Shown here: positions 1,885 through 64,000 of the stretch, piece after piece | How the letters are laid out: every line of letters starts with the position of its first letter | Position numbering within the stretch: the first letter of the stretch is position 1 | Source: Eledone cirrhosa | Taxonomy: Eukaryota | Direction: 5' to 3' | Length of the DNA: 64,000 nucleotides | NCBI GenBank assembly: GCA_964016885.1 | Contig: OZ024756.1 | Span: forward strand, 13,702,001-13,766,000 | The notes under the pieces: model-generated | Seen by the model: the letters and a program-made list of their open reading frames with translations, nothing else | Databases searched by the model: none | Told to the model about the DNA's origin: nothing | Made by a program: the position numbers and the translations under genes

Positions 1885-2363
1885 TTTAGTATAAGTTTGG
1901 TAGAAATATCCAAAGGTAAGAGCATACAGTCCATAGGATGAGTTAAGTATAATTAGTTACAACAGTGACATGTGCAGGTACGTAAGTTTTGTTGGGTCAT
2001 ACTTGGGTCATACATCCCAGCTCAAACAGAAGTGAGCTCCACCAAACTGAAACACCAAACTGAAGCCTGGACTTAAGTCGGAATGTCCGAGAGCCGGTTC
2101 AAAACACGGTACTTGAACCGTGAAACAACCTTCAGGCATCCTGACAAAAGCATGCTACCCAGCTCGCAAACCATAAAGGGTTTCTGTACCCTTTACCCTT
2201 ACATGTATTGCTTATATATTTAAGTCTTTCAATACTGAAACAACTGAAAACATAAAAATTTATCTGTTTTCTGTCCTTTTTTTTTTTCTTGTCATTTTCA
2301 TTCCATTTCATTCCATTCCATTGTTTTTTTTTGTTTTTTGTTTTTTTTTATGCTTTGCTTCAG

Positions 2364-2777
2364 ATTTATGATAGAACCTGTCTCTATAGAATGTGAAGGA
2401 ATGACGTCAAACCGACGAAACTCTCAAAAACTAGAAAAAGTCTTCGCTTCGCTGGATAAACCTTACGCTAAAATAGTTTCTCGGCCGCCATTACTTTCGG
2501 CAATCGAAGAACAGAATACTGTTACGAGCTTGACTCAGGTGCTACCACAACAACAACAACAACATCAACAACAGCAACCCCAACAACAACAACAACAACA
2601 TCAACAACAGCAACCCCAACAACAACAGCAGCAACAACTACTACTACAACAACATCATCTGCAAAAACAATTAAAGCAACAAAAACAACTACAACGACAA
2701 CAACAACTGCAATTACAAAGACAACAAGCAGTTCTTGCAGAACCAGAAATCTTTGATGAAGAATCTTTGTCAGCATT
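2364..2777 (+). CDS. Internal coding exon of an uncharacterised low-complexity (poly-Q) protein, gene A
   Basis: Pyrimidine tract and CAG acceptor (AG 2362-2363); open frame FMIEPVSIECEG...QQQ...EESLSA; GTGAGT donor at 2778; phase 2 at both ends, compatible with the next exon. Confidence 0.75.
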
Positions 2778-3642
2778 GTGAGTAAATTCTTTCTCCTTGT
2801 TGCTGTTGTTGTTGTTGTTGTTGCTGCTGCTGTTGTTGTTGTTGTCGGTGATGGTGGGCTGTGGTAGTTGTTATTGTCGTTACTAAAAATTGTTGACATA
2901 CAGCGAAAACATGATGAAATATATGGAGAATAGAAATGGCTGTGTAGTTGCTATTTAAGGTATCTTAAAATGCAGTGGGAATACGAAGAAAGCAAGAGGG
3001 GGGGGGGGTCCTCATCAGTTGTCTACTGGGGGTCTCGGATATTTCTACGCTTTAAAGACAAGATATCTCACCCCAGGGCGTCAATAACTGGATAAGTTAT
3101 TGGAAAAACGGAGGAGGGAGGGAAGGAAAGCAAACATATATATATATAATGAAATAAATAGAGATGATATAAAGTATATATCATTCGTTTATTGCTATTA
3201 TATGCTTTGTTGGTGAATATTCAACAGAGTTATGTTCATTACAGATATGAAGCACTCTACAGATAAATGTTATCTGGAGTATTATAATATTATTAATAGT
3301 AATAAATGGAAAATATCACTATAGCATCATATTTATTTTATTATACGTATTTCAAGGATACCAAATTATGGTATGCTTTCATCAGATAAAATACAATGTT
3401 TGATGTATAGGATAATGACATATCAAAAGCATAAACTTACAACAGTTGGGCATGCCCACTGTAAGCTGAAGTTGAAAGTTTATACTTTTGATATGATATC
3501 AAAGATTGTATTTTATCTGATGAAAGCATACCATAATTTGGTATCCTTGAAATACGTAAAATAAAATAAATATGATGCTATAGTGATATTTTCCATTTAT
3601 TTCTATTAATAATAATAATAATAATAATAATATAATATGTAA

Positions 3643-4545: not shown

Positions 4546-4584
4546 ATTATTATCTTATAATTTTCCTTAACATCCGTTTCACAG

Positions 4585-5700
4585 AAACAAAGCGCAGAGG
4601 CGCGGCGGAGCAGCAGAGCGCAAACCTCGGCCGAAGAGCAGTCAGCAATACGTGGCCTTACCCCCGATTCTGGTGCAGAGACCAGCCGTGAGGAAAAGCA
4701 GCCGGAGGATGACCGGTTGGTTGTCCGACTCCGACCTCAACGCCCAACGTCCGAGCGTCGACGAAACGACACGTCTTCGTCAGCAACAGCGCCGCCTGGT
4801 GCGGCGTCGCGCCCGCCGTTGCCACCACTACAGTGTGGACAGTCCGTCGGATAGTGACGGTGAGGTTGAAGAGTATGGGGAGAACGTGGCCAAAGGTCCC
4901 GACAAGGACCGCGTCAAGCAGTATTACAATGACCGCAACAGAGGTAGCGTTGCCGATGACGGCGACGATGACGACGATGACGATGACGATGATGTCGATG
5001 ACGTCGATGAAAACGATGGTGCGACGAAACCGACCATGAAACGAGATCGCTCTACTGCTGCTACTACTACTACTACTACTAATACTACTAATACTAATAC
5101 TACTAATACTGCTACTGCTGCTGCCACTACTACAGTTACGACAGCCGCTACTTCTGCTACTAATACGACAACTACTGTTGCTGCTACTGTTGCTGCTGTT
5201 GCGGCAGCAGCAGGGGAGGCCTGTTCGTGTTCATGTTCGTGTCAGGCCCAACAGAAATCTGTAGATAAAAACATACCCGAAAGAACACCTAAGCCCTCAA
5301 TGATGCGAGTTCAAACGCAATCCAAGACGAAACCGTCACCCCCACCACCACCTCTGCCACTGACACCGACACTTGTAAAACAACTTGACCCCAAGATCTC
5401 AACCGAGAAAGTACGACCCAGTAGCGAACCTATCTCACCCCGACGTCTTAAGCAATACCAACCGACTGTGCACTTTCAACCCGAGGTAGTACGAAAGGAC
5501 AAGCGTACCCAAGCCCAAGCTGAAGCAGCCAGTCGACTTCTCTCCGCCCCCACTCCGGCCAGCAAAGCTCCAAGTGGAGCGCTCACGTTGACTCTGCCCC
5601 GCCATTCGGTGTCAACGAGCTCTGTCCCACGGGCAACCCAACAGTCACTGGTGCATTCACAGCCACCTCCAACATCGATCCCTGTCGTTGTTAGTAAGAC
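4585..5700 (+). CDS. Internal coding exon of gene A (acidic, Thr/Ala- and Pro/Ser-rich disordered region)
   Basis: tttcacAG acceptor at 4583-4584; a phase-2 join puts it in the frame of the 4652..5704 ORF; GTAAGT donor at 5701, again phase 2; GC-richer than flanks. Confidence 0.8.
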
Positions 5701-5749
5701 GTAAGTACTTAAGCTCATTCAGTTTTAGCTTCGTGAATCGCTTCACCAC

Positions 5750-9802: not shown

Positions 9803-11213
9803 TATATAGAGCAACGTTTATGTACCAACGCAGCAATGTATCTATCATGTCTGAACCAACTACCTTCTAGGTAGACTTATGTCATATCAACTCCACCTGC
9901 CCCTTCCCTTAGATCATACCTGTTCCACACACACACACACATTTCTCGTCACTCAAAATATTCATTCATCAAGACGCTAAAACTTATGATCCCCGCATAT
10001 ATGCACTCTCTCACCTCCAATCGCCAAATATACCGCTACTACAACGGTCTCTGCTCCTCTGAAGTTCCTGGCTAGAAATACTCCTCTCACTTCCCTTCTA
10101 CGTCTCCTCCAACCTCACATACCTTTCTTTCTAACGGGAGTCAAGGACATTGTCAACACCGCCACCACATGTTGTGCTTGTTGTGGAGGTTGCAGTGGTG
10201 GTGTTGTCGCTATCAAAGTAGCAACAGGGGTGGAAGAGTTGATATGATAATTGTTGGTGCTGTTGTCGTTGTTGTTGTCCTGTACTGTCAGTCGCTCAAC
10301 TCTTCGTGAAACCGGGATAGACTCCGATCCGACGCGCCTCAAATCCCTCAACTTTGCCTTTAATCCTTTTGGGCTCGATATATAAAGTAGGAAACAGTGG
10401 TTGAGGCAGTGAATTGGTGGAATCGAGAGTCGGGCGGGATTCTTTGACTTTTTGGTATCATATCTGACTCTGTGCGTTCTGAGTTCAAATCCCACCTCCT
10501 TCTGCTAGGTGTTGTGACCGGCAGATAGTATCAGCAATGGAAAAAAAAACAATGGAAAAATAGTCTCGTTGATCCTTGGTCCTTGAAACATAGTTTCCCT
10601 GGTCCTTATTTGTTGCTCCTTTCCTTTCCTATTCTGTCGGGGAGGGGGTGGGTAAATTCATTTTAGGATGATAATATTATTTATTCATTTAGATTTTAAT
10701 TTTTGGTACATCTAATAATTAAAGAATGGTAAATGGACTTTCTTTTGTAAAAAAAAAAAAATTATATATATATATATACATATATATAATGGAAAAAATA
10801 AAATAAAATAATTTCCTTTTTATTTTGTTTTGTATTTCTCTCTCTCACTCTCAGAATTTTTGTTGTTTTTTTTTAAAATAAAAGCCGGTTCAATGCAGTA
10901 GAAAAATATGAAGAGCAATTGATGACACATAAAACAAAAGAAAGTAATGTTTTACCCAATATATTTCAACATGATCTTTCAGAGCTATTAGCTGCTTTTC
11001 AAATGTGGAGCTTAAACAGTTCAAAACAAAACGTACGATTGGTGTGTTCTTCCTCAACTGGTCTACATGTCTGTAATACGCGTGCTTTAAGTCGTTATAG
11101 AGCCAGTCAACCTCGTGCATTTCCGTTCTATTATTTACCGGTAGGGGGATGATGATATTCGCCTCTTTTGTTGTTGTTTTTGCTGCTGCTGTTGTTGTTG
11201 TTGTTGTTAGCCA

Positions 11214-11960
11214 CTCTTTTCCAGAGGACTTTCAGTCCAAGGAGCCTGGCCTTGTAGTGCTACCGGGGGAGCTTTGCCGGTTCGAGATAAACTCTACAGG
11301 CATTGAAGTACCGTCGACCGGGCCTGACCGTGATGAAACCTTCCCACATATCCATCGAGTGTGCGAGAACACCTGCTGTCACTGTGGGATGGATCCGTCT
11401 ATCAGCTGAGTCAGTCGTGATGATCACCCCCGCCACTTTCCTTTAGAGGGTAAGTACAGGCAGTTCTATTCTTCCTGGTGTCCACGGTGAAAGAGGTCAC
11501 GTGGTAGACGCGCTTGGAAGGCTTGAAGACAAGCACTTTCCTCTTCGGCGAAGCTCTAATTAACTTTTTCACGTTTCACTTGAAGAAAAAAAAGGTCAGA
11601 GTGGAGAGGGAAGTGCTGTTTTCCAACCAGTTTGTTGAAAGGTGGGTGGGGGTGGTGAGCATGGTCCGAGTGAATGAGCCTGCTCTGAGTATGCACCTGT
11701 AAATTGGAGGAAGACAACTAGGGCACGTGATCTTGCAGTGAAGGTTACCATGGCTTTTTGCGGGCTTTCTCCGCCAGTGACTCTCGGAGGTCTCCCCACT
11801 TTTTGACGAGTTTCTTATGTTGGATTTTGTAAATGTTTATTTGTTTAGTCTTTGTTATAACCCTTATTTTGCACACAAAAGAACCCACACTATATCGTCC
11901 TGTACCGTCTCTATTGTCTGATTAATGTCAACCCTGTCTGGCTAATAAAGAAACCCTTAT
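11214..11960 (+). mobile_element. Degenerate 3' fragment of a Tx1/L1-like LINE
   Basis: Similar to 14100-14920 (LKKKVRVERE segment, ERWV), frameshifted, ends AATAAAGAAA before a TTA repeat. Confidence 0.65.
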
Positions 11961-12619: not shown

Positions 12620-14925
12620 GAGCCACGCCCCCAACTGTAAGTCTGCTGTCATGTGACAACGCCTGAAACGTTGAGAGGAGGGATACGGCGAACACAAGTA
12701 TTTATACCACAAACACATTTAGCAAAACCACCACAAACAACATGAACAACGACAGAAACGACAGCAACAGTGAGAACACTAACCTAAAAAAAGTTACAAC
12801 AGCAACCACAGCGACAACCAAAAGATAGACAACAGAAACAATGATAACAGAAACAATGACATTAACACCAACAACAAGAACATGAACAACGACAAAAACA
12901 AGGTAACAAAACCAACTGCACCGAAAACAACAACAGCAGCACCAAAGATATAACCAACAGTAACAGCGTCAACAGCAACAACACCAACAAGAACAACAAT
13001 GACAACAACAAGAACAATTTCGCTGCGGCAGCAGCCAAATAGAGGCCATGCTTCATCACGGACCTCACGAATAAAGATGAAATGTTGGCCCAAGCCTGGA
13101 AGTTCATCAAACAAGAGCAAACTTGGGCCAACTTAACTGTACCGGCAGAAACCATTGAAGCAGTGGAACGTAGAACGGTGCATTTGAGATGCATTTCAGC
13201 ATCGTACCAGAAACAAAGAGGGCGGCTTTAATTGCCCAAGCAGATCTTGAAGCCGCGCTGAGATACATCAAGGATGACATCGAGTACATAGCGAGGGGCA
13301 GACAATACGGCACCATTTCCGTGCTGTTTAAGTCAAAAGCTCTCGCTATGAAACATGCGATGACCCCTTGCAAAACGAGCATGGTCATTATGTACTCTTC
13401 CCACATGGGAAAACGAACAGCTCGTGTCCGCATTCTCGAGATTTAACACCTGGAAAACAACACCAACAAAACCATCACCACCACAGTCACGCAAATAAAT
13501 AAAACCGCACCAACAAAACATGCAAAACTTCGTCCCTGTCAGAAGGGCCAACAAAGAATTGGTGGCCATCGTAGCACGAAGTAAAGAAATTCAAACAGAG
13601 GGGGAGATTTTTGAATCGAGCATATTTCGCATACAAGAAGATTTGTTTCTGGTACGAATGTGGCTCGATTCCTATAAAGGAATTGGAGAGAGCTTTTCTC
13701 GGGACGTGAGAACTCCGACGTGAAACCCACATCAAGACTTTGAAAGGGTTTCCCAAAATATGAAAGGTTAACGGGAGCGAAACTTAACACAGAAAAGTCG
13801 GTGGGCTTGCAGCTCGGCATCTTCAGAGGCAAGTCCATGCCGTCCAACAGCAGTGAACAAGTGTGGTCGCCGTTTGTCAGACGGGCCTTTCCACAGCTCG
13901 TCTCTTTGACTGAGCTGCAGTCCTGGATCAAGAAGAGACTGGGTGACTGGCCTCTGGAATGTTGCCAGGTACTAACTGCCCTCTACCAGGCGGGCAATAT
14001 GGTCAGTGGAATTTCCACTCTCGAGTTCTATAGAGGATTAGTGGTGGGCAAGTGCGACGACGCACTCAGAGAGGCTCTGGGCGTTGACGAAGTCGAACTA
14101 GCCAAGCTGTTCCGGAGGACTTTCGAGCCAGGGACGATGGATTACTTCCAGAAATTACTCGCTTGGCAGTGCTACATGGGAGCACTGCCAATTCAAGATA
14201 AACTCTACAGGTACGGAAGTACTGTCAGACGGACCTGCCCGAGATGCGCGCAGAGCGACGAAACCGTTCTGCACGCACTTGTCCAATGTCCGTGCATTAC
14301 TGACTTGTGGAGTTATGTCGAACAGCTATTGTCGCGTGTAGAACAGATCCGGCTATCGGCCGAGTCCATAGTGAAGATCGACCCGCCGCTTTCTTTTGGC
14401 CAGGAAGGGCAGGCAATTTTCTTCTGTCTGGTGGCAGTAGCGAAAGAGGTTGTGTAGCGGACCAGGTTGAAAGGACTGAAGACAGATACTTTTCTCTTCA
14501 GCAATCCTTCATCAAACTTTTCAAATTTGACTTGGAAAAGAAGGTGAGGGTGGAGAGAGAAATGCATGTTGTGTGTGTGTGTGTGTGTCCTCAGTACCCC
14601 TTGCTGCTGAAAGGTGGGTGAATATGAGAAGAATGGCCCGTGTGAGTGGGCCTACTCTGATCATATCCTGTAGGCTGGTGAATTTGAATAGGAGAGGGGT
14701 GCACTCGAATCGTCGGCTGGTTCAGGATTGGTGGGGTACCAGATTTAACCCTGAGTGGTTACCACCCCATTGGGGTACTTCCGTTCTTTGTAATTTTCTT
14801 GTTTTACTGTTTTTGTTTTCATATTTCTTTCTCGATATTTGTGTACCCCCCCCCCCCCCACTGTCCCCGTCTATTGTACTGTCCCCTGTATGTCGGCCCT
14901 TGTGGCCAATAAATGAAACCATTAT
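12620..14925 (+). mobile_element. Rearranged or deleted Tx1/L1-like LINE (ORF1 remnant + ORF2 C-terminus)
   Basis: Broken ORF1-like frames at 13050-13720; ORF2 end with CPRC...ETVLHALVQCP zinc finger (13801-14457); AATAAA and simple-repeat tail near 14910. Left boundary approximate. Confidence 0.65.
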
Positions 14926-18238: not shown

Positions 18239-21699
<3,461 letters not shown>

Positions 21700-22820: not shown

Positions 22821-23634
22821 TTAGTAGGGATAGTTGAAGTTACCAGGATGTTTCATGAAATATAAATTCGGATATTTTTCATACGAATCATCTTCATCTT
22901 CAGATTCAGCTTCATTTCCAGCAACGAACTGGACGTGTTTTCCTGTTTCGAAACGTTGTTTCAGTTTCATGACAGAATTACCAACACTAGCAGACGATCT
23001 GTCACGTGACGATTCTCTTTCATTGATCACTTCAGTCTCGGCATCACTTTCATCTGTTACTTCGGTTACAAAAGGAATTTCATCAAACGAACGAAATCTA
23101 CCTTGACATTTCGGTATATTTAAAAGACTCCCTTGAATCTCTTCAGAATTTGTTTCATTCAAATATATATATTTCGTATTTACAGACCGATTATTAATGT
23201 CAGGAGCAGGCGATTGGAAATAACCGGCGATTGTTTGATACGAAAGTTTGTTTGAATCTCCATTTTCTCTTACGAGGGTCTGCTGTGATATATTCATTAC
23301 ATCTCTTTTCTTAGCTTCATCGTCAACAAGGTTATCCCTGACTGGAAGCTGGGAGGCGTTTGAGTAAATTCTCTCTCTGGGAACATATTGAGAGTTGTAC
23401 AAATTATATCTTCGAAATTCGATTTCATTAGTGAATCTTTCTTGTTCTCTGGGGGGTATCATATGAATGGGTTCTTCAACCGATGGCTTTAAAACCATGT
23501 CACGCTCTCTAGAAACAGGGACACCTGGTGGTTCACGAAAGTCTTTGCGAACTATTCTTTCCTTTTTTATGGTCTGTTCTATTACTTCAGGATGTGGTTG
23601 AAGAATATGTTGTTGTTGCTGTTGTCGTTGTTGT

Positions 23635-23666
<32 letters not shown>

Positions 23667-25472
23667 ATGCTGTTGTTGTTGGAATTCTTGTTGCAGCTGT
23701 GGTTGCTGTTGTTGTTGCAGCAGCTGCTGCTGTGGTCGTTGTTGTTCTTGATGCGGTTGTTGCCGTTGTTCTTGGTGTGGCTGTTGCTGCTGTTGCTGTT
23801 GTTGTTTATACAAAGGTCTGACGTGATAAGAAGGAAAATCTACATTACTTATATTTACGTTCTGTCCATAAGTATGCTCGTCTTTCTCCACAAATGTGGT
23901 ATTTTTAACAATGACTCCTTCATCAAGTGTTATAACATTATTCTTGTGATTTTGTAAAACTACATTAGGTGGGCAAGATGGCAGTGTTTCTCCAACAAAT
24001 ACTTTATCTCTTCTCTCAGCTATTAACTTGTTCTTTTGTAAATCCGTTATATATGCCTGAAATGGATCGACTAGACTGCCACGGCTGTCAAGGTAATTTC
24101 CGTGTAAGTCCATAGAATAACTAGACATATCAATATTTCCTTCAAGAAGTTTCAGAAGACGCATAAGCATAAAAGTCTTCGCAGTCTGGTGTGGATCTTC
24201 TCCTCCCTCACGAGACACGACAGAGTTGTTTCCCCTTTGGTTAGCCATTTTCAAACTGGATTTCTTAGGTAGAATATTAAAGTTGGGAATTGTTCTCTCC
24301 AAGTATTCTAAATATTCTTCTTCGTCAATCTCATCAATATTTGCTCCGTCATTCCGATGAGGTCCATAAGGGTCTGCGAAGTTATCTTGGAAGCTGGGTG
24401 CTTCCCGATAATAAATCGGTTCGTCTAAATCAAAATTATCCTGAAGTTGTCCCCCTGGATAGTTCGGAAAATCCACGCGTGGGTTGGGTGACCTTACACC
24501 ATTCTGACTCCAGGGGTAATCATTGAAATCTAGATTGTTCATTGAATCCCATCCATATCTTTGGTTCGGATTTGAGAAGTTTGGCTGTTGAGCAGGAAAT
24601 CTATAATAATCTTGCTTTGGAAATTGCCCCGGTTGGATGTAAGAGTTATAACCACACGGGTTCATTCGTAAAGGGAGGTGATTCTGTCTGAAAGGGTAAG
24701 TATTGAAATGTGGAGGCCTAGTAGGAAAAGGAGGACGATTTATCGTATATTTAGGAAAATTACTAAATCTTTCCATATAAGGTGATAAATATGGGTTTGA
24801 AAATGACCCACGGGGATGAAATGAAAAGTTCATTTGCTGTGGGTAATTTCTTTGGGGGCATCCAAACTTATTCCGAAGGTTGTCCGAGTTTGGTGGCATC
24901 TGTTGTATTGAACTCGGAACTCGGATCAAAGCAAGAGAGTTATCTACAAGGCATTTGTTGTCATCTGTCAACCGAGTTCCTTCCAAAGGTTCTGCGTGGC
25001 TTCTCCTCTCATGGGAATCATCAATCTCATGATTCAAGCAATTGGTTGGTAATTCAGCAAGGGACGCCTGATTCAGGAGTCTGCCACCTGAACTAGACGC
25101 AAAAGCAAGAGACGTTTTATCATCATCATTGCTGTGGAAATATGGCGTTTTTCGTGTCTGTCTGTTAATATTTTCACGTTTTATTTCAAATGGCTGTTGC
25201 TGGCAAATGTCACGTTGTTCAAATGAACCTGGACAAGACAATTTGATTCGATTCAATAAGTTACATCTGTCCATGTATGAAGGCAATTGCTGATCTATCT
25301 CTGGCTCAAAATTGTGTCCATGAGAATATGATATTGCGTCAGAGTATGGGGATGTCGGCTTCCCCCAGATTTTCTTGTTGTCTGTCGTCTGCTCCATGCG
25401 GCCAAAGTTATCTGTAGGTCCACCTAGTTTTATATTACCGAAGTCATCTTCCAAATCTCTACTGTCGTACAT
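22821..25472 (-). CDS. 883-aa intronless, largely disordered protein with a single reflectin-like motif (aa ~444-471) and a poly-Q tract
   Basis: 2.65-kb uninterrupted, mostly non-repetitive ORF; ATG preceded by an in-frame TAA and a strong splice acceptor (TCTTTTTTTTTCCTTTTTTCCAG, exon start 25487); contains EGNIDMSSYSMDLHGNYLDSRGSLVDPF. Confidence 0.88.
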
Positions 25473-25579
25473 CTTTTAATATAGAAGCTGGAAAAAAGGA
25501 AAAAAAAAGATAACTTACAAATATTGTTTCAAAAATGGAAGAGCAAGGCGACAGGAAGACATGGCAGCAGCTGTATATA

Positions 25580-25730
25580 CGAGGGTCGGCTGAAACGTTC
25601 ACAGGCTGACCAAGAAACTCTCACGGGATGACCAAATGAGGTTTATTTTTCAACATAGTCCATGAACAGAATTTATACATGCAATATTTCACAGCTCTAG
25701 TCAGCCTATGAACTTTTCAGCCAACCCTCA
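25580..25730. mobile_element. Mariner-derived MITE
   Basis: TA|CGAGGGTCGGCTGAAACGTTCACAGGCTGAC ... GTCAGCCTATGAACTTTTCAGCCAACCCTCA|TA inverted ends. Confidence 0.75.
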
Positions 25731-25899
25731 TAGAATGGAGACTGAGTGGTGGTAGTGGCGGGGGGGGGGGGCTGGTTCTTGTGGTCGAAATAGGCATGGC
25801 AGGCGATGGGGAGATGAAACCGATAGGTGTCAGATCGATGAGACAGAATATGAGCAGTTGGCTCTCGATTGAAGAGGCCTTCACCTGAAATGGGCGAAT

Positions 25900-26095
25900 A
25901 ATTGTTTCTACTTTTGGCACAAGGCCAGCAATTACCCAAGTGCATTACTGGGGCTTTATTTTATCGACCCCGTAAGTATTAAAGGGAAAGTTAACCTCGG
26001 CGAGATTTGAACTCAGAACGTAAAAGGCCATAACTCTATGCTGCAAAGCTCAGTGTCTGACGTTCTACCAATACTGCCAATCCACCGAAGTTGGC
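25900..26095 (-). mobile_element. Family-1 SINE
   Basis: Reverse complement of the family-1 core and B box. Confidence 0.8.
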
Positions 26096-28199: not shown

Positions 28200-28730
28200 G
28201 TTCTTCTGGTTTTATAATTTCACAAATTTTTTCCCAATAAAGAGAGAGTCGGTTTCTAACATAGACACAAGACTCTCTCATTGGAATTTACACATCAACT
28301 AGGTAGATATGTATGTATGCATGTATGTGTAGATATGGATCTTATTGTATGTGTGGATGTGGATGTTTTGAGTTGTATGTGTGCATGTGTATATGCTTTG
28401 CATCTGTACATGTATATATGCAGTTATTAGATGTAACATTTTTGGAAAGTTTTACATATTTTTATTGTTCCATTAATGGATTGTACTTGTAATTTCCTAA
28501 CTAGTTGTGTTCTTTCTGTTCCTGTGAAGCCTAGCTTCTCAAGATTTGTATTGAGGCAGTTACTAACATATCCCAATGCCCCAATAATCACAGGTATAAA
28601 TTTGAAGGTGTAATCAGGGTGGAGTATCTGTAGATTTCTCATTAGTTCTGCATAGATATTCTCCTTTTCGCTAATCTTTGATATTATATTGGCATCTGCT
28701 GGGCAGCTAATTTCCACTACTGTGCATGCT
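28200..28730 (-). mobile_element. R4/Dong-like non-LTR retrotransposon, short 3' fragment
   Basis: EISCPAD...KISEKENIY...FIPVIIGALG restriction-like endonuclease C-terminus plus 3' UTR; bounded by (CATA)n/(CA)n. Confidence 0.8.
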
Positions 28731-28830
28731 TATGTATGTATGTATGTATGTATGTATGTATGTATGTATGTATGTATGTATGTATGTATGTATGTATGTA
28801 TGTATGTATGTATGTATGTATGTATGTATG

Positions 28831-30823
28831 TTATCTCTTTCTCTTAATTTCGAGTATATTTTTTTGACCGGCCACCTTCCTGGTGGCAAGGTTGTAAAAG
28901 AAAAGAAATTGTCATCCCTTGAATCGCAAGAATGTTTTGCAAATTTTGAAGGTGCCAGCTATCGCAGCCATTTGTAGACTATGAATTAGGGAGCTGCGCT
29001 TTTTGTCCGCAAATCCAAGTTCAGTCATGCTTTGGTCCAAGCGGGTTGGTATATAACCCGTAGCTCCAATAATGATGGGTATGAAGCTAAAGGTGTATCT
29101 TGGATACTAGATTTGTAAACTCCTCATCAATGGTCCGTAGATGTCCTCCTTCTCCTGTATTTTTCTGACAACGTTTACATCAAGTGGGCAGCTGATCTCC
29201 ACAACAGAACACGTTTTCAATGTGTGATCCCAAACAACAATATCAGGCCGGTTGTGCTTTAATTTGGTGGCAGTTTTTATTTTCAGGTTCCACCAGTATT
29301 CCTTAGTGCCATCTGTCTCAATATATTCTTCCTCGTTTGTTGTTAATTTTGTTTTCCGAAATGCGTTCCAGATGGTTCTAGCTATCCCATCGTGTCTCAT
29401 GGGGAGGTAGTAGCGAGATGACATTCTTTCGCAGCTGGCAACAATGTGGCTTACATCCTCGATCTTTGTTTTACATAGCCTACATTCATTGTCAGCTGCT
29501 GGCCCTCCTCTTTTGTGCAGCAGATATTTGGTAGGGAGTTCTTGTTCCTGTATTGCATAGAGATATCCCTCAAGGTGTGATGTCATAAACTTGTCGGAAC
29601 TCCATGCCAGGCTTTTTGAGTGGTTTATCCCATCTATGGTCTGTGTTTTACGTCTCAAGTATCCATGCACAACTTTTTCTGTAAATTGGTCAATTTTTTT
29701 ATCTTGTTTGAACATTGAATACGATCTTCCGATTTCTCTGGGTGAGAGATTTATATCAGGCTTTATTCCATATCTCTCCTCAGATCAGTCGCTATTCTAA
29801 TGATTTTTTTTTTCATGCTCATAAACCTGGGCAAGATGGTTGCCAACCTTTTTCCTCTGTTGAAAGTGTTGCTTCAGTGTTACTATCCGGGTCTCATATG
29901 TTGTTAATATTGATTTTAGACCCCGGCCACCTTCCTTGCGTGAGAAGTATAGCCTATCCACATCACCATTGATGTTAAAGTTCCCAGTAACACTGAGAAG
30001 TTTGCGAGTTCTAACATCCATCTCACTTAGTTCTTGCAATGACCAGTTCAGCAGGCCAAATGTTGGCGTTAAAATTGGCACAGCATAAGTATTGTGGGCA
30101 ATGTATTTGTTGTACGTTGACAGTTCTGATGACCATATTTTCTTTACTCTTCTGAGGTATTCAGTTCTGGTTCTCTCCTTATTTATGGGTCCATCATATC
30201 TGACATTCTCATCCTGTCTACGATATCTGTAGTTGTCATCTGACTGCAGAGGTTGTATTGTCAGGCCGTTCATCTCTAGATTTCTAGAGGAGGGCACAGC
30301 TCTTCCACGTTTTACTGCCAAATATGCACACTTGGACTTCACCAAATTTCATTTTGATGTCGGTTGAAAATTGTGTAATGAGGTCCAATTGTTTCTTGAT
30401 GTCATTGATATTTGGCCCATACAACTTCAGGTCATCAACAAAGAAAAGATGGGAGATACTTCTGGGCCCACTTCTTTGTCCACCTTGTTTCCTGAGTAGG
30501 TAAGATAGTGGATTCAGTGAGAGAACGAAGAGTAACACTGACAAGCTATCACCCTGAAAGATGCCCTTCTGGTAATGTATCTTATCAGTCTTAACTTGCT
30601 CCTTCTCACCTCTAAGGATCAAATTGGTGTACCAGTTCTTGGTCAGGCGTTCAACAGCAGCTACCAATGGTTGTGGGACTTTAGCTAACTGTAAAGCCTT
30701 AATAATCCACCCATGAAATACACTATCAAATGCTTTTTGATAGTCCAGCCACACCACAGTCATGTTTCTGCGATTCTTTGTTGTTTTTTCCTGAATCATT
30801 TTGTTAGTTAGTATGTTTCTGCA

Positions 30824-30826
<3 letters not shown>
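28831..30826 (-). mobile_element. R4/Dong-like non-LTR retrotransposon, 5'-truncated and frameshifted (RT + CCHC + REL endonuclease)
   Basis: WLDYQKAFDSV, GIFQGDSLS, HLFFVDDLKLY (RT); CRLCK..EDVSHIVASC; RHD; NRPDIVVWD...VEISCP; both ends abut (TATG)n. Confidence 0.92.
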
Positions 30827-30854
<28 letters not shown>

Positions 30855-30896
30855 TGTATGTATGTATGTATGTATGTATGTATGTATGTATGTATG

Positions 30897-31014
<118 letters not shown>

Positions 31015-31436
31015 CTTGCTTTTCCCTTTGTTTCACTCACGAGATTTTCGTGCTATAAGAGGCACAATACCTTTTCCCTGTCGTCACATGAAATTCTATG
31101 TGTACTTGTCATAGCTTAATTGCTATAAGTTACTGTTTTGTGTCGACTCTTACCCCACTGGACAGCGCTTTGGCTAGTGTCTGACGTCGTGACCCGTTGA
31201 TCAGCAGTGCCGTTGGTAGGTTTCGAAACTGCCAAAGTCCATTTCAACGGCCGATGACCATGGAGTCCTGTGCCTTTCGTTTGTATTTTTATTTTCAAAA
31301 GATAATTTTTTTAAAGTTTGTTTTTCGTTTTGCTTTGCCTTGTCCTCTCTTTGTAAATGTTCCTAAGGCGCTTAGACGAGCTTAGTGAATCTCACAGGAG
31401 CAGCAGCAGCAGCAGAGAGTCATTTTTGTGCAATAT

Positions 31437-36389: not shown

Positions 36390-39300
36390 ACGTTCTAACC
36401 ACTCTACCATTCTATCTGACGTTCTAACCACTCTACCATTCTATCTGACGTTCTAACCACTCTACCGTTCTATCTGACGTTCTAACAACTCTACCATTCT
36501 ATCTGACGTTCTAACCACTCTACCGTTCTATCTGACGTTCTAACCACTCTACCATTCTATCTGACGTTCTAACCACTCTACCGTTCTATCTGACGTTCTA
36601 ACAACTCTACCATTCTATCTGACGTTCTAACAACTCTACCATTCTATCTGACGTTCTAACAACTCTGCCATTCTATCTGACGTTCTAACAACTCTACCAT
36701 TCTATCTGACGTTCTAACCACTCTACCATTCTATCTGACGTTCTAACCACTCTGCCATTCTATCTGACATTCTAACCACTCTACCATTCTATCCGACGTT
36801 CTAACCACTCTACCATTCTATCTGACGTTCTAACCACTCTACCATTCTATCTGACATTCTAACCACTCTACCATTCTATCTGACGTTCTAACCACTCTAC
36901 CATTCTATCTGACGTTCTAACCACTCTGCCATTCTATCCGACGTTCTAACCACTCTACCATTCTATCTGACGTTCTAACCACTCTACCATTCTATCTGAC
37001 GTTCTAACCACTCTACCATTCTATCTGACGTTCTAACCACTCTACCATTCTATCTGACATTCTAACCACTCTACCATTCTATCTGACGTTCTAACCACTC
37101 TACCATTCTATCTGACGTTCTAACCACTCTACCGTTCTATCTGACGTTCTAACAACTCTACCGTTCTATCTGACGTTCTAACCACTCTACCATTCTATCT
37201 GACGTTCTAACCACTCTACCATTCTATCTGACGTTCTAACAACTCTACCATTCTATCTGACGTTCTAACAACTCTGCCATTCTATCTGACGTTCTAACCA
37301 CTCTACCATTCTATCTGACGTTCTAACCACTCTACCATTTTATCCGACGTTCTAACGACTCTACCATTCTATCCGACGTTCTAACTACTCTACCATTCTA
37401 TCAGACGATCTAACGACTCTACCATTCTATCAGACGTGCTAACCACTCTACCACTCTACCATTCTATCAGACGTTCTAACGACTCTACCATTTTATCCGA
37501 CGTTCTAACCACTCTACAATTCTATCAGACGTTCTAACCACTCTGCCATTCTATCAGACGTTCTAACCACTCTACCACTCTACCATTCTATCAGACGTTC
37601 TAACCACTCTACCATTCTATCCGACGTTCTAACCACTCTACCATTCTATCAGACGTTCTAACCACTCTGCCATTCTATCAGACGTGCTAACCACTCTACC
37701 ACTCTACCATTCTATCAGACGTTCTAACCACTCTACCATTCTATCAGACGTTCTAACCACTCTGCCATTCTATCAGACGTTCTAACCACTCTGCCATTCT
37801 ATCAGACGTTCTAACCACTCTGCCATTCTATCCGACGTTCTAACCACTCTGCCATTCTATCAGACGTTCTAACCACTCTGCCATTCTATCAGACGTTCTA
37901 ACCACTCTACCATTCTATCAGACGTTCTAACCACTCTACCATTCTATCAGACGTTCTAACCACTCTGCCATTCTATCAGACGTTCTAACCACTCTACCAT
38001 TCTATCAGACGTTCTAACCACTCTACCATTCTATCAGACGTTCTTACCACTCTGCCATTCTATCTGACGTTCTAACAACTCTGCCATTCTATCTGACGTT
38101 CTAACAACTCTACCATTCTATCTGACGTTCTAACCACTCTACCATTCTATCTGACGTTCTAACCACTCTACCATTCTATCTGACGTTCTAACCACTCTGC
38201 CATTCTATCTGACATTCTAACCACTCTACCATTCTATCTGACGTTCTAACCACTCTACCATTCTATCTGACGTTCTAACCACTCTACCATTCTATCTGAC
38301 GTTCTAACCACTCTACCGTTCTATCTGACGTTCTAACAACTCTACCATTCTATCTGACGTTCTAACCACTCTACCGTTCTATCTGACGTTCTAACCACTC
38401 TACCATTCTATCTGACGTTCTAACCACTCTACCGTTCTATCTGACGTTCTAACAACTCTACCATTCTATCTGACGTTCTAACAACTCTACCATTCTATCT
38501 GACGTTCTAACAACTCTGCCATTCTATCTGACGTTCTAACAACTCTACCATTCTATCTGACGTTCTAACCACTCTACCATTCTATCTGACGTTCTAACCA
38601 CTCTGCCATTCTATCTGACATTCTAACCACTCTACCATTCTATCCGACGTTCTAACCACTCTACCATTCTATCTGACGTTCTAACCACTCTACCATTCTA
38701 TCTGACATTCTAACCACTCTACCATTCTATCTGACGTTCTAACCACTCTACCATTCTATCTGACGTTCTAACCACTCTGCCATTCTATCCGACGTTCTAA
38801 CCACTCTACCATTCTATCTGACGTTCTAACCACTCTACCATTCTATCTGACGTTCTAACCACTCTACCATTCTATCTGACGTTCTAACCACTCTACCATT
38901 CTATCTGACATTCTAACCACTCTACCATTCTATCTGACGTTCTAACCACTCTACCATTCTATCTGACGTTCTAACCACTCTACCGTTCTATCTGACGTTC
39001 TAACAACTCTACCGTTCTATCTGACGTTCTAACCACTCTACCATTCTATCTGACGTTCTAACCACTCTACCATTCTATCTGACGTTCTAACAACTCTACC
39101 ATTCTATCTGACGTTCTAACAACTCTGCCATTCTATCTGACGTTCTAACCACTCTACCATTCTATCTGACGTTCTAACCACTCTACCATTTTATCCGACG
39201 TTCTAACGACTCTACCATTCTATCCGACGTTCTAACTACTCTACCATTCTATCAGACGATCTAACGACTCTACCATTCTATCAGACGTGCTAACCACTCT

Positions 39301-41643
39301 ACCACTCTACCATTCTATCAGACGTTCTAACGACTCTACCATTTTATCCGACGTTCTAACCACTCTACAATTCTATCAGACGTTCTAACCACTCTGCCAT
39401 TCTATCAGACGTTCTAACCACTCTACCACTCTACCATTCTATCAGACGTTCTAACCACTCTACCATTCTATCCGACGTTCTAACCACTCTACCATTCTAT
39501 CAGACGTTCTAACCACTCTGCCATTCTATCAGACGTGCTAACCACTCTACCACTCTACCATTCTATCAGACGTTCTAACCACTCTACCATTCTATCAGAC
39601 GTTCTAACCACTCTGCCATTCTATCAGACGTTCTAACCACTCTGCCATTCTATCAGACGTTCTAACCACTCTGCCATTCTATCCGACGTTCTAACCACTC
39701 TGCCATTCTATCAGACGTTCTAACCACTCTGCCATTCTATCAGACGTTCTAACCACTCTACCATTCTATCAGACGTTCTAACCACTCTACCATTCTATCA
39801 GACGTTCTAACCACTCTGCCATTCTATCAGACGTTCTAACCACTCTACCATTCTATCAGACGTTCTAACCACTCTACCATTCTATCAGACGTTCTTACCA
39901 CTCTGCCATTCTATCTGACGTTCTAACAACTCTGCCATTCTATCTGACGTTCTAACAACTCTACCATTCTATCTGACGTTCTAACCACTCTACCATTCTA
40001 TCTGACGTTCTAACCACTCTACCATTCTATCTGACGTTCTAACCACTCTGCCATTCTATCTGACATTCTAACCACTCTACCATTCTATCTGACGTTCTAA
40101 CCACTCTACCATTCTATCTGACGTTCTAACCACTCTACCATTCTATCTGACATTCTAACCACTCTACCATTCTATCTGACGTTCTAACCACTCTACCATT
40201 CTATCTGACGTTCTAACCACTCTGCCATTCTATCCGACGTTCTAACCACTCTACCATTCTATCTGACGTTCTAACCACTCTACCATTCTATCTGACGTTC
40301 TAACCACTCTACCATTCTATCTGACGTTCTAACCACTCTACCATTCTATCTGACATTCTAACCACTCTACCATTCTATCTGACGTTCTAACCACTCTACC
40401 ATTCTATCTGACGTTCTAACCACTCTACCGTTCTATCTGACGTTCTAACAACTCTACCGTTCTATCTGACGTTCTAACCACTCTACCATTCTATCTGACA
40501 TTCTAACCACTCTACCATTCTATCTGACGTTCTAACCACTCTACCATTCTATCTGACGTTCTAACAACTCTACCATTCTATCTGACGTTCTAACAACTCT
40601 GCCATTCTATCTGACGTTCTAACCACTCTACCATTCTATCTGACGTTCTAACCACTCTACCATTTTATCCGACGTTCTAACGACTCTACCATTCTATCCG
40701 ACGTTCTAACTACTCTACCATTCTATCAGACGATCTAACGACTCTACCATTCTATCAGACGTGCTAACCACTCTACCACTCTACCATTCTATCAGACGTT
40801 CTAACGACTCTACCATTTTATCCGACGTTCTAACCACTCTACAATTCTATCAGACGTTCTAACCACTCTGCCATTCTATCAGACGTTCTAACCACTCTAC
40901 CACTCTACCATTCTATCAGACGTTCTAACCACTCTACCATTCTATCCGACGTTCTAACCACTCTACCATTCTATCAGACGTTCTAACCACTCTGCCATTC
41001 TATCAGACGTGCTAACCACTCTACCACTCTACCATTCTATCAGACGTTCTAACCACTCTACCATTCTATCAGATGTTCTAACCACTCTGCCATTCTATCA
41101 GACGTTCTAACCACTCTGCCATTCTATCAGACGTTCTAACCACTCTGCCATTCTATCCGACGTTCTAACCACTCTGCCATTCTATCAGACGTTCTAACCA
41201 CTCTGCCATTCTATCAGACGTTCTAACCACTCTACCATTCTATCAGACGTTCTAACCACTCTACCATTCTATCAGACGTTCTAACCACTCTGCCATTCTA
41301 TCAGACGTTCTAACCACTCTACCATTCTATCAGACGTTCTAACCACTCTACCATTCTATCAGACGTTCTTACCACTCTGCCATTCTATCAGACGTTCTAA
41401 CCACTCTACCATTCTATCAGACGTTCTAACCACTCTGCCATTCTATCAGACGTTCTAACCACTCTGCCATTCTATCAGACGTTCTAACCACTCTACCATT
41501 CTATCAGACGTTCTAACCACTCTACCATTCTATCAGACGTTCTTACCACTCTGCCATTCTATCAGACGTTCTAACCACTCTGCCATTCTATTAGACGTTC
41601 TAACCACTCTACCATTCTATCAGACGTTCTAACCACTCTGCCA
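36390..41643. repeat. 5.2-kb satellite, 29-bp unit, with higher-order duplication
   Basis: GTTCTAACCACTCTACCATTCTATCTGAC; a rare GATC variant recurs at 37407, 39258 and 40732. Confidence 0.96.
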
Positions 41644-52937: not shown

Positions 52938-53294
52938 GTTGTGAGAAGCCGGCTGATCTTGCATTTCTGTTGGATGAATCGGGAAGTGTTGGCCAACCGA
53001 ACTATAACAAAGTGAAACAGTTTTTAACAAAATCCATCAATAGACTGCCCATTTCCCCAAACCAGTTCCGTGTGTCGGTTACCTCGTTCAGTACTTCTAC
53101 ACATATCTATTTTTACCTGAATACTTTTTCCAGCAAAACCTCCATGATACAGAAGGTGAATGCGATGGGTTATGACGCAGGCGGTACAAATACTGCCAGT
53201 GGAATCAACACTGTGGTTAATGATGTTTTCAACATTGCTAATGGTGCTAAATCGAAAGAAGATGCTCCTAGGGTGTTGGTTCTTGTTACAGATG
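52938..53294 (+). CDS. Gene C exon 3: von Willebrand factor A domain, N-terminal part
   Basis: ttccAG acceptor; CEKPADLAFLLDESGSVG (MIDAS DxSxS), GGTNT, VLVLVTDG; G|GTAAG donor; phase 1/1. Confidence 0.93.
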
Positions 53295-53371
53295 GTAAGC
53301 TCGAAAAAAAAAAAAGACTTTTCGATTAAAAAAAAGATTTTTCTTTTAACGTTTTTCATAATCGGGTTCTT

Positions 53372-55796
53372 TCAGACACAAGACACTTCCAGACACAAAC
53401 ATTTCCAGATACAAGACACTTCCAGACACAAACATTTCCAGACACAAGACACTTCCAGGCACAAACATTTCCAGACACAAACATTTCCAGACACTAGACA
53501 CTTCCAGATACAAACATTTCCTGACACAAGACACTTCCAGACACAAGTCACTGCCATAGAGAGACACTTCCAGACACAGACACTCCCAGACATAAGACAC
53601 TCCCAGACATGAGACACTTCCAGACATGAGACACTTCCAGACATAAGACACTTCCAGACATAAGACACTCCGAGACATAAAACACATCCAGATATAAGAC
53701 ACTCCCAGACATAAGACACTATCAGACATAAGACACTATCAGACATAAGACACTCCCAGACATAAGACACTCCCAGACATAAGACACTCCCAGACATAAG
53801 ACACTTCCAGACATAAGACACTTCCAGACATAAGACACTTCCAGACATAAGACACTTCCAGACAGACACTTCCAGACAGACACTCCCAGATATAAGTCCC
53901 TTCCAGATATAAGACACTCTCAGACATAAGACATTTCCAAACATAAGACACTTCCAGACATAAGACACTTCCAGACATAAGACACTCCCAGACATAAGAC
54001 ACTTCCAGACATAAGACACTCTAAGACATAAGACACTTCCAGACATAAGACACTCCCAGACAGAGACACTCCCAGACATAAGACACTTCCAGACACAAGA
54101 CACTTCCAGACATAAGACACTTCCAGACATAAGACACTTCCAGACATAAGACACTTCCAGACATAAGACACTTCCAGACATAAGACACTTCCAGACATAA
54201 GACACTTCCAGACATAAGACACTCCCAGACATAAGACACTTCCAGACATAAGACACTCCCAGACATAAGACACTTCCAGACACAAGACACTTCCAGACAT
54301 AAGACACTTCCAGACATAAGACACTTCCAGACATAAGACACTCCCAGACATAAGACACTCCCAGACAGAGACACTCCCAGACATAAGACACTTCCAGACA
54401 CAAGACACTCCCAGACATAAGACACTTCCAGACATAAGACACTCTAAGACATAAGACACTTCCAGACATAAGACACTTCCAGACATAAGACACTCCCAGA
54501 CAGAGACACTCCCAGACACAAGACACTTCCAGACATAAGACACTTCCAGACATAAGACACTTCCAGACATAAGACACTTCCAGACATAAGACACTTCCAG
54601 ACATAAGACACTCCCAGACATAAGACACTTCCAGACATAAGACACTCCCAGACATAAGACACTCCCAGACAGCGATACTCCCAGACAGCGACACTCCCAG
54701 ACAGCGACACTCCCAGACATAAGACACTTCCAGACATAAGACACTTCCAGACAGACACTCCCAGACATAAGTCCCTTCCAGATATAAGTCCCTTCCAGAT
54801 ATAAGACACTCCCAGACATAAGACACTCCCAGACAGCGATACTTCCAGACATAAGACACTCCCAGACATAAGACACTTCCAGAAATAAGACCTTCCAGAC
54901 ATAAGACACTCCCAGATATAAGACACTCCCAGTCAGAGACACTTCCAGACATAAGACACTTCCAGACATAAGACACTCCCAGACATAAGACACTTCCAGA
55001 CATAAGACACTTCCAGACAGACACTCCCAGACATAAGTCCCTTCCAGATATAAGTCCCTTCCAGATATAAGACACTCCCAGACATAAGACACTTCCAGAC
55101 ATAAGACAGTCCCAGACAGAGACACTCCCAGACATAAGACACTTCCAGACAGAGACACTTCCAGACATAAGACACTTCCAGACATAAGACACTTTCAGAC
55201 ATAAGACACTTTCAGACATAAGACACTTTCAGACATAAGACACTCCCAGACATAAGACACGCCCAGACATAAGACACTTCCAGACATAAGACACTTCCAG
55301 ACATAAGACACTCCCAGACAGAGGCACTTCCAGACAGAGACACTTCCAGACATAAGACACTTCCAGACATAAGACACTTCCAGACAGAGACACTTCCAGA
55401 CATAAGACACTTCCAGACAGAGACACTTCCAGACATAAAACAGTTCCAGACATAAGACACTCCCAGACATAAGACACTCCCAGACATAAGACTTCCAGAC
55501 ATAAGACACTTCCAGACATAAGACACTTCCAGAAAATAAGACACTTTCAGACATAAGACACTTTCAGACATAAGACACTTTCAGACATAAGACACTTCCA
55601 GACATAAGACAGTCCCAGACAGAGACTTCCAGACATAAGACACTCCCAGACAGAGACACTTCCAGACATAAGACACTTCCAGATATAAGACACTTTCAGA
55701 CATAAGACACTTCCAGACAGAGACACTTCCAGACATAAGACACTCCCAGACAGACACTTCCAGACAGAGACACTCCCAGACATAAAACACTTCCAG
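53372..55796. repeat. 2.4-kb satellite, 17-bp unit, in the intron splitting the VWA domain
   Basis: CCAGACATAAGACACT(T/C) repeated, with 13- and 15-bp variants; joins directly to a 5'-truncated SINE at 55797. Confidence 0.95.
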
Positions 55797-63500: not shown

Positions 63501-64000
63501 GTTGTTGATGTTTGCTGCTGCAGTTGTTGATGTTTGCTGCTGCAGTTGTTGATGTTTGCTGCTGCAGTTGTTGATGCTGTTGCTGCTGTTGTTGATGTTT
63601 GCGGCTGCAGTTGTTGATGTTTGCTGCTGCAGTTGTTGATGTTTGCTGCTGTAGTTATTGATGTTTGTTGCTGCAGTTGTTGTTTGTTGCTGCAGTTGTT
63701 GATGCTGTTGCTGTTGTTGATGTTTGCTGCTGCAGTTGTTGATGCTGTTGCAGTTGTTGATGTTTGCTGCTGCAGTTGTTGATGTTTGCTGCTGCAGTTG
63801 TTGATGTTTGCTGCTGCAGTTGTTGATGTTTGCTGTTGCAGTTGTTGATGTTTGCTGTTGTTGATGCTGTTGCAGTTGTTGATGTTTGCTGCTGCAGTTG
63901 TTGATGCTGCTGCAGTTGTTGATGTTTGCTGCTGCAGTTGTTGATGTTAGTTGTTGATGCTGTTGTTGATGTTTGCAGCTGTTGATGCTGTTGCAGTTGT
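60540..64000. repeat. Compound GTT/GCT/GCA satellite, dominant 22-bp unit, runs off the window
   Basis: GTTGTTGATGTTTGCTGCTGCA and shorter variants. Confidence 0.95.

Follow-up and report, generated by a model that had tools for sequence, protein, structure and literature searches.

Reflectins, which underlie cephalopod iridescence, serve as a textbook case of a gene family confined to one lineage, and their origin is disputed; we know of no identified regulator of these proteins. The locus described here, from the octopod Eledone cirrhosa, raises the question of whether one reflectin-like motif, buried in the middle of a large protein that does not otherwise look like a reflectin, belongs to that family and, if so, what it may be doing there. 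The window, that is, the whole stretch of 64,000 nucleotides that was analysed, consists of repeat-rich DNA and corresponds to C17:13,702,001-13,766,000 of the 3.0-Gb genome.

The gene and its orthologues

The gene is an 883-codon ATG-to-TAA frame on the minus strand (window 25472-22821), which runs without interruption. The features of its overall layout are as follows:

22821..25472, minus strand: coding region (single open frame closed by TAA; Octopus orthologues)
23608..23806, minus strand: glutamine-rich trinucleotide repeat, far longer than in the Octopus orthologues
25488..25509, minus strand: inferred splice acceptor, consisting of a pyrimidine tract with a CAG that lies 15 nt ahead of the ATG (compare 18-19 nt in the reflectin genes of the same genome)

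Contigs of one public sequencing run, possibly from the source sample and used as an assembly check only, span 23872-24372 and show no difference. Searches of the genome for paralogues of residues 72-391 and 625-883 returned only the gene itself, which thus appears as single-copy. Pfam assigned the 883-aa protein to no family above the cut-off; a canonical reflectin of the same genome and two orthologues of the window protein also received none, and Pfam is therefore blind to reflectin kinship.

Orthologues were identified in O. vulgaris (CAI9738044.1), O. sinensis (XP_036366955.1) and O. bimaculoides (XP_014783164.1), all annotated as uncharacterised and 53-54% identical to the window protein over full-length alignments; two of the three end at the residue matching its last one, whereas the N-terminus and the glutamine run are shorter in Octopus. 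Since the three have identical motifs and fall into one 90% cluster, they amount to about one comparison. Outside Octopus, the search yielded no orthologue, with one found among 867 candidates of 485-1,546 aa and none among 614 of 30-336 aa; lengths of 337-484 and above 1,546 aa were covered by the reciprocal search described below only, in which proteins sharing 50% identity or more with the O. vulgaris orthologue are hidden in its cluster.

The acceptor-like site lies directly before a one-exon coding region, as in the reflectin genes of the same genome. A fixed acceptor rule was passed by three of those four genes, as against 2% of random ATGs; the fourth has a CAG at 19 nt and failed the tract rule. 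This layout would fit descent of the window gene from a reflectin gene, but it is weak evidence, because 5'-UTR introns near the start codon are frequent among animal genes. Reads of four public runs, which behave like DNA at low depth, contained no splice joint at this acceptor. Very high-copy interspersed repeats occupy 25577-25735 and 25897-26084, directly upstream of the inferred acceptor.

Elsewhere in the window, long tandem arrays (18243-21683, 36390-41643, 53369-55796 and 60567-63948; TA, 29-, 17- and 41-base units) account for most long open frames, and two minus-strand frames (13744-14457 and 28427-31036) resemble, by eye, fragments of non-LTR retroelements. Exon-like open frames at 2248-2781 (+), 4571-5704 (+) and 10890-11231 (-) match no Pfam family above the cut-off, and exons at 52940-53300 (+) and L059:6550-7152 (+), encoding a von Willebrand A and two chitin-binding CBM_14 domains, probably belong to one gene adjoining the window gene.

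A single reflectin-type motif

The original prediction described a reflectin-like motif with the spacing ID-x5-MD-x5-LD, and the sequence reads as claimed: residues 444-471 of the 883-aa frame correspond exactly to window positions 24143-24060. The part recovered by profiles is slightly shorter:

24060..24134, minus strand: single reflectin-type motif, residues 447-471 (profiles, shuffles, reciprocal search)

A joint HMM, built from 72 motif rows (7 N-terminal and 65 internal, four of the latter mis-anchored) of 23 public reflectin and reflectin-like proteins and leaving out both the window protein and the reflectin of its own genome, matched residues 447-471 at 27.9 bits (iE 2.1e-6 per 30,000 sequences). 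Separate N-terminal and internal models gave 21.5 and 25.9 bits, respectively, the orthologues reaching 31 bits on the former, and a stricter HMM, for which 14 named squid and cuttlefish reflectins supplied 38 rows, gave 27.0 bits for the window motif and 35.3-35.7 bits for two Octopus orthologues. The window protein contains one such domain match only. In a check set beforehand, none of 45,000 shuffles reached the real score on the joint HMM, be it after shuffling of the whole protein (0/5,000, maximum 7.5 bits), of an 80-residue segment (0/20,000, maximum 9.9 bits) or of the motif alone (0/20,000, maximum 11.2 bits), and the best background score outside reflectin-motif ORFs was 8.4 bits (20,232 segments with 941,526 residues from 664 kb of the same genome).

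For the reciprocal search, the window protein and the three Octopus orthologues were combined into one profile and compared with 1.84 billion cluster-representative proteins (E up to 0.001). It returned seven matches: the O. vulgaris orthologue, five reflectin-repeat proteins, all matched at profile positions 408-445, that is, at the motif, and one glutamine-run artefact. The best non-self matches were two long proteins without names, taken from public assemblies, P0029 (1,270 aa, E 8e-15) and P0030 (1,103 aa, E 1e-12); all named matches across the searches are cephalopod, bar the artefact. Within the Eledone genome, a search with residues 408-494 gave four matches other than itself, each a reflectin motif on C1 with a weak E-value; further matches on C3, C7, C13, C23, C664 and at C1:434 Mb were rejected as tandem repeats scoring at most 10 bits. 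Searching the PDB with the motif profile gave three unrelated matches (E 2.7-2.9), and the ESM Atlas gave no usable match for residues 375-525 or the O. vulgaris orthologue, a result that is silent on absence or novelty. Profile scores and reciprocal search thus bear out the view of this protein as a divergent reflectin-motif protein.

Composition sets the protein apart from canonical reflectins

Outside the motif, little recalls a reflectin. The protein is acidic (net charge -21, pI 5.6), with 2.0% Met, 4.6% Tyr and 6.5% Leu, compared with 12-17% Met and 0% Leu in three reflectins, and it is thus not a Met/Tyr/Arg-rich chain with almost no aliphatic residues; nor does it alternate several motifs with cationic linkers, given its one domain match and its charge. 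None of the published patterns matched the window protein or its three orthologues, whether the repeat pattern [M/F]D-x5-MD-x5-MD, in which positions one and three are here I and L/V with the spacing kept, the N-terminal motif (RMN; from passages of PMC9779258) or the relaxed 2026 rule [MZ(X)<=5] x>=3 (bioRxiv 10.64898/2026.04.14.718489), applied in our own regular-expression version. Two further features deserve mention:

24348..24890, minus strand: low-complexity region rich in Pro, Asn, aromatic residues and Arg, residues 195-375 (P 15.5, N 13.3, F 9.4, Y 8.3, R 7.7%)
22926..22940, minus strand: KHVQF, residues 845-849, candidate RVxF site (pattern match; a lead only)

The former resembles reflectin linkers (bioRxiv 10.64898/2026.04.14.718489) in composition. 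The latter is identical in both orthologues that reach that far, and a strict match occurs in 15% of shuffles. RVxF is the docking pattern of protein phosphatase 1, K/R-x-V-x-F.

Compared with the canonical set (A1/A2 type; Sepia reflectins 1, 6 and 14; Loligo methionine-rich repeat protein 1; and the cluster on C1 of the same genome), the window protein shares the motif spacing, the key columns, the single coding exon and the acceptor-like site before the ATG, but it has one motif rather than three to nine, differs in composition, charge and contig, and is missed by the published patterns. As far as its sequence allows us to judge, it is a reflectin-derived protein and not a canonical reflectin.

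Genomic setting and a second single-motif frame

The canonical reflectins of the genome lie at C1:45.75-46.15 Mb, with four intact frames and one containing stops. The copy at C1:46,146,642-46,147,196 (-) combines an N-terminal motif with a degenerate repeat, is interrupted by in-frame stops and is likely a pseudogene. In public data, the canonical O. bimaculoides reflectin XP_014779611.1 (P0020) is annotated as 'TBC1 domain family member 5 homolog A', and other octopus reflectins as 'uncharacterized'.

The window gene lies on C17, off the reflectin cluster (C1:45.66-46.15 Mb), both contigs being of chromosome scale, and linkage, another check set beforehand, is therefore absent; no other reflectin motif was found in the 464 kb made up of the window and 200 kb on each of its sides. 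Unclustered reflectin genes have been reported for D. pealeii, where the lone gene is on chromosome 26, and for A. dux in passages of PMC9068888 and PMC6962438. Across the whole genome, a degenerate 35-base pattern occurs at 25 sites, of which 23 are at C1:45.66-46.15 Mb, one is the window motif and one is a chance site.

A second single-motif ORF is located at C1:45,659,532-45,660,137 (-), with 89 kb between it and the closest canonical reflectin. It scores 36.7 bits, and 46.9 on a model of P0029 and P0030; like the window motif, it has an asparagine at a position occupied by R, K or H in all 72 public rows. Its flanks are rich in Met and Pro, and a likely upstream exon lies about 1 kb away. 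From its sequence, this ORF is a candidate octopod counterpart of reflectin C.

Could the likeness of the window motif to reflectins be due to chance or convergence? The 35-base core pattern was composed with prior knowledge of the window motif and does have chance matches, three in a reversed control and one unrelated site in 3 Gb, but the latter scores 1.0 bit as against 27.9 for the window motif. The shuffles, the genomic background and the reciprocal search all oppose such a reading, as does a genome search with the other single-motif ORF, in which all 10 matches were reflectin motifs and the window motif was the only one off C1; we regard chance or convergence as highly improbable and close to refuted. 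By its sequence, the window protein carries a motif homologous to that of reflectins, which places it in a reflectin-motif superfamily that includes reflectins B and C. The window motif and those of reflectins very probably share common descent, either because a duplicated gene moved and kept one repeat or because one repeat was captured.

Conservation of a helix-motif-helix block

The motif had been expected, in a further check set beforehand, to stand out as the conserved island of the protein. This was borne out for a larger unit: residues 435-484 form the top 50-residue window against O. vulgaris (74%; next window, 64%; overall, 54%), but the motif alone (19/26 identical) is no better conserved than the helices before it (12/17, residues 429-445) and after it (9/12, residues 472-483). 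With flanks as conserved as the motif, the conserved unit is best described as a helix-motif-helix block of about 50 residues. The block is ungapped, and in the 16 residues directly upstream of it only four are identical, with an indel. At the 26-residue scale, island 380-405 ties for first place, and several other islands are 69-77% conserved.

24135..24194, minus strand: leucine-rich predicted helix before the motif, residues 427-446 (two low-confidence models)
24021..24059, minus strand: predicted helix after the motif, residues 472-484 (9/12 identity; two low-confidence models)
24249..24335, minus strand: second conserved island, residues 380-408, with an acidic run and a predicted helix at 384-394, not reflectin-like (75-77% identical windows)

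Two AlphaFold models, one covering the whole protein (4 sequences) and one residues 375-525 (1 sequence), with mean pLDDT of 30 and 40, respectively, both have a helix, short strands and a helix at the motif block, where pLDDT is 50-58, the highest confidence outside the glutamine helix; this is a hint only of a helix-strands-helix fold. The protein is predicted to be mostly disordered, although the low values of the whole-protein model may reflect the depth of its alignment.

Within the motif, M9, M14, D15, D22 and P30, which are invariant in reflectins, are kept in all four octopod species. At four of the seven positions where the window and Octopus motifs differ, Octopus has the commonest residue of one reflectin motif type (N, F, Q, R), so that the column preferences of reflectins appear to be still in play. 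In the window motif, two arginines and two methionines are replaced by N, S, I and L, a loss that would suit packing against the protein's own helices.

A hybrid motif and its origin

The two halves of the motif had been said to match different reflectin motif types. This holds for the first half, which is internal-like (13.1 vs -3.3 bits), with the internal model favoured in each of the four species; the second half is N-terminal-like only slightly in the window copy (28.5 vs 25.3 bits), but clearly so in the Octopus orthologues (39.4 bits N-terminal vs 26.7 internal), and none of the 65 internal rows has a second half preferring the N-terminal model. The same hybrid form recurs in P0029 and P0030, each with five repeats in the middle of the protein and a Met content of 9-12%: the first half prefers the internal model in 10/10 repeats and the second half the N-terminal model in 9/10. 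The residues preceding these repeats align without gaps with those before the window motif (BLAST 438-471); this alignment reaches nine residues before the motif, and there is no likeness outside the motif. P0029 and P0030 match no Pfam family, and a stricter search of the Eledone genome revealed no orthologue of them. They are related to each other (54%) and have an acidic tail, P0029 also carrying Gly-Pro-Met repeats.

According to the original prediction, the window gene might be a relic of a single-motif ancestor predating the split of the N-terminal and internal types. Its motif is indeed intermediate in sequence between the two, and in the best unrooted tree (47 rows from 13 proteins, 32 columns), in which the three single-motif rows form a group (93/74, not starred), the hybrid rows stand with the N-terminal motifs, split from the 28 internal repeats at 100/100. 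Yet constrained trees reject neither a placement with the internal repeats (AU p 0.50) nor one with the N-terminal motifs (AU p 0.47), the tree being unrooted and of 32 columns, and the window branch (0.74) is among the longest. Moreover, the hybrid repeats of P0029 and P0030 are nearer to both consensus types than the window motif is, no orthologue was seen beyond Octopus in the protein searches, and the serine common to the window and N-terminal motifs is encoded by AGC in the window and by TCT in 5/5 N-terminal motifs of the same genome; as the codons differ, the match is possibly convergent. With the hybrid form present in other proteins, the constrained trees undecided and the serine codons discordant, the relic claim is unlikely: the hybrid motif type may be old, but the window gene itself as an ancient relic is neither shown nor favoured.

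Possible function and competing explanations

Single-motif reflectins as such are already known from squid. According to passages of bioRxiv 10.64898/2026.03.13.711711, reflectin B has the N-terminal motif only and reflectin C a single poor repeat; each of them co-phase-separates with A1, whose mobility is raised by C. According to passages of bioRxiv 10.64898/2026.08.27.747642, A-type condensates in HeLa cells become more fluid with B and C. By this preprint work, no close homologues of B and C have been described outside loliginids. Like B and C of Doryteuthis opalescens, the window protein has one motif and no block-copolymer repeat; it may likewise be disordered, going by a low-confidence prediction, and it shares a Pro-rich low-complexity region with C; judged by the descriptions of B and C, it is set apart by its 883 residues, acidic charge, low Met, presence of Leu, absence of GMXX repeats and octopod origin, as well as by a motif that is central, hybrid and flanked by conserved helices.

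By analogy with reflectins B and C, which have a single motif and co-condense with A1, the window protein could be an octopod product, likely of a reflectin-family gene, that joins reflectin assemblies as a low-valency guest and tunes them; we prefer this reading, while giving it somewhat less than an even chance. The accompanying mechanism, for which we would come nearer to even, is that the helix-motif-helix block and the aromatic Pro/Asn-rich region would bring the protein into reflectin condensates of iridocytes, leucophores or other cells that make reflectin; there, an acidic chain with one motif would dilute or screen the cationic network. That the C-terminal RVxF-like site would, in addition, bring protein phosphatase 1 to reflectin assemblies is improbable. 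Several observations count against a guest: the failure of all reflectin patterns, the Met-poor, Leu-containing composition, the losses of Arg and Met in the motif and the position of the gene outside the cluster. Isolated single motifs, according to passages of PMC9986269, spread freely in cells without condensation or localisation, and co-recruitment has been attributed, in passages of bioRxiv 10.64898/2026.08.27.747642, to overall sequence make-up, which also speaks against a guest role because the window protein is mostly without reflectin make-up.

The close rival of the low-valency guest is a motif that derives from reflectins but has been repurposed as the hairpin core of a helix-hairpin-helix module, binding itself or a partner in a non-optical setting, for example, in nerve or germ cells. 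We consider this possible, at a chance not far above one third. It would account for flanking helices as conserved as the motif, for the aliphatic residues that stand in for Met and Arg, for the helix-strands-helix prediction of both models and for the several other conserved islands, and a squid reflectin is, according to passages of PMC9839350, expressed in the brain and olfactory organ; the models, however, are of low confidence and built from 4 and 1 sequences, and the spacing and the reflectin-invariant columns are still kept in four species. A motif that merely decays as a passenger, reflectin-derived DNA needed only as a spacer, would be compatible with its modest conservation above background when taken alone (binomial p 0.04, post hoc; 4.6% of windows are as conserved) and with a window copy that scores 2-8 bits below the Octopus copies, but not readily with an ungapped block that forms the top window next to poorly aligned upstream residues, and this is very unlikely. 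More sweepingly, the reflectin motif could be a general coleoid interaction module, with a hybrid class (the window protein, the single-motif ORF beside the cluster, P0029 and P0030) that links large proteins and keeps the ancestral form of both motif types, and with the window protein docking on reflectin assemblies and delivering protein phosphatase 1 by its tail; taken as a whole, this is a long shot.

Significance

A literature search by orthologue accessions, motif peptides and keywords returned no paper on the window protein or its orthologues; no such protein appears in passages of PMC9635652, PMC13218726 and PMC11931252, and one supplement of PMC9068888 makes no mention of reflectin. 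Eight O. bimaculoides and nine O. vulgaris reflectin sequences have been collected by BLAST (bioRxiv 10.64898/2026.04.14.718489), and the Octopus orthologues of the window protein may be among them, which would lower the novelty. A large octopod protein that is not reflectin-like apart from its one reflectin motif is apparently an undescribed variant, and there are signs of a wider, unrecognised class of hybrid-motif proteins.

Pattern-based inventories, the relaxed 2026 rule included, miss members of the reflectin family, whereas profile searching recovers a pair of single-motif genes from this genome and a pair of long repeat proteins from elsewhere. A motif that is conserved without reflectin composition implies that it can persist outside a block-copolymer setting, and the window protein offers a natural experiment on the effect of a single motif. 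Co-assembly with reflectins would make this protein the first candidate for an octopus counterpart of squid reflectins B and C; expression in other places would point to a non-optical use of the reflectin motif.
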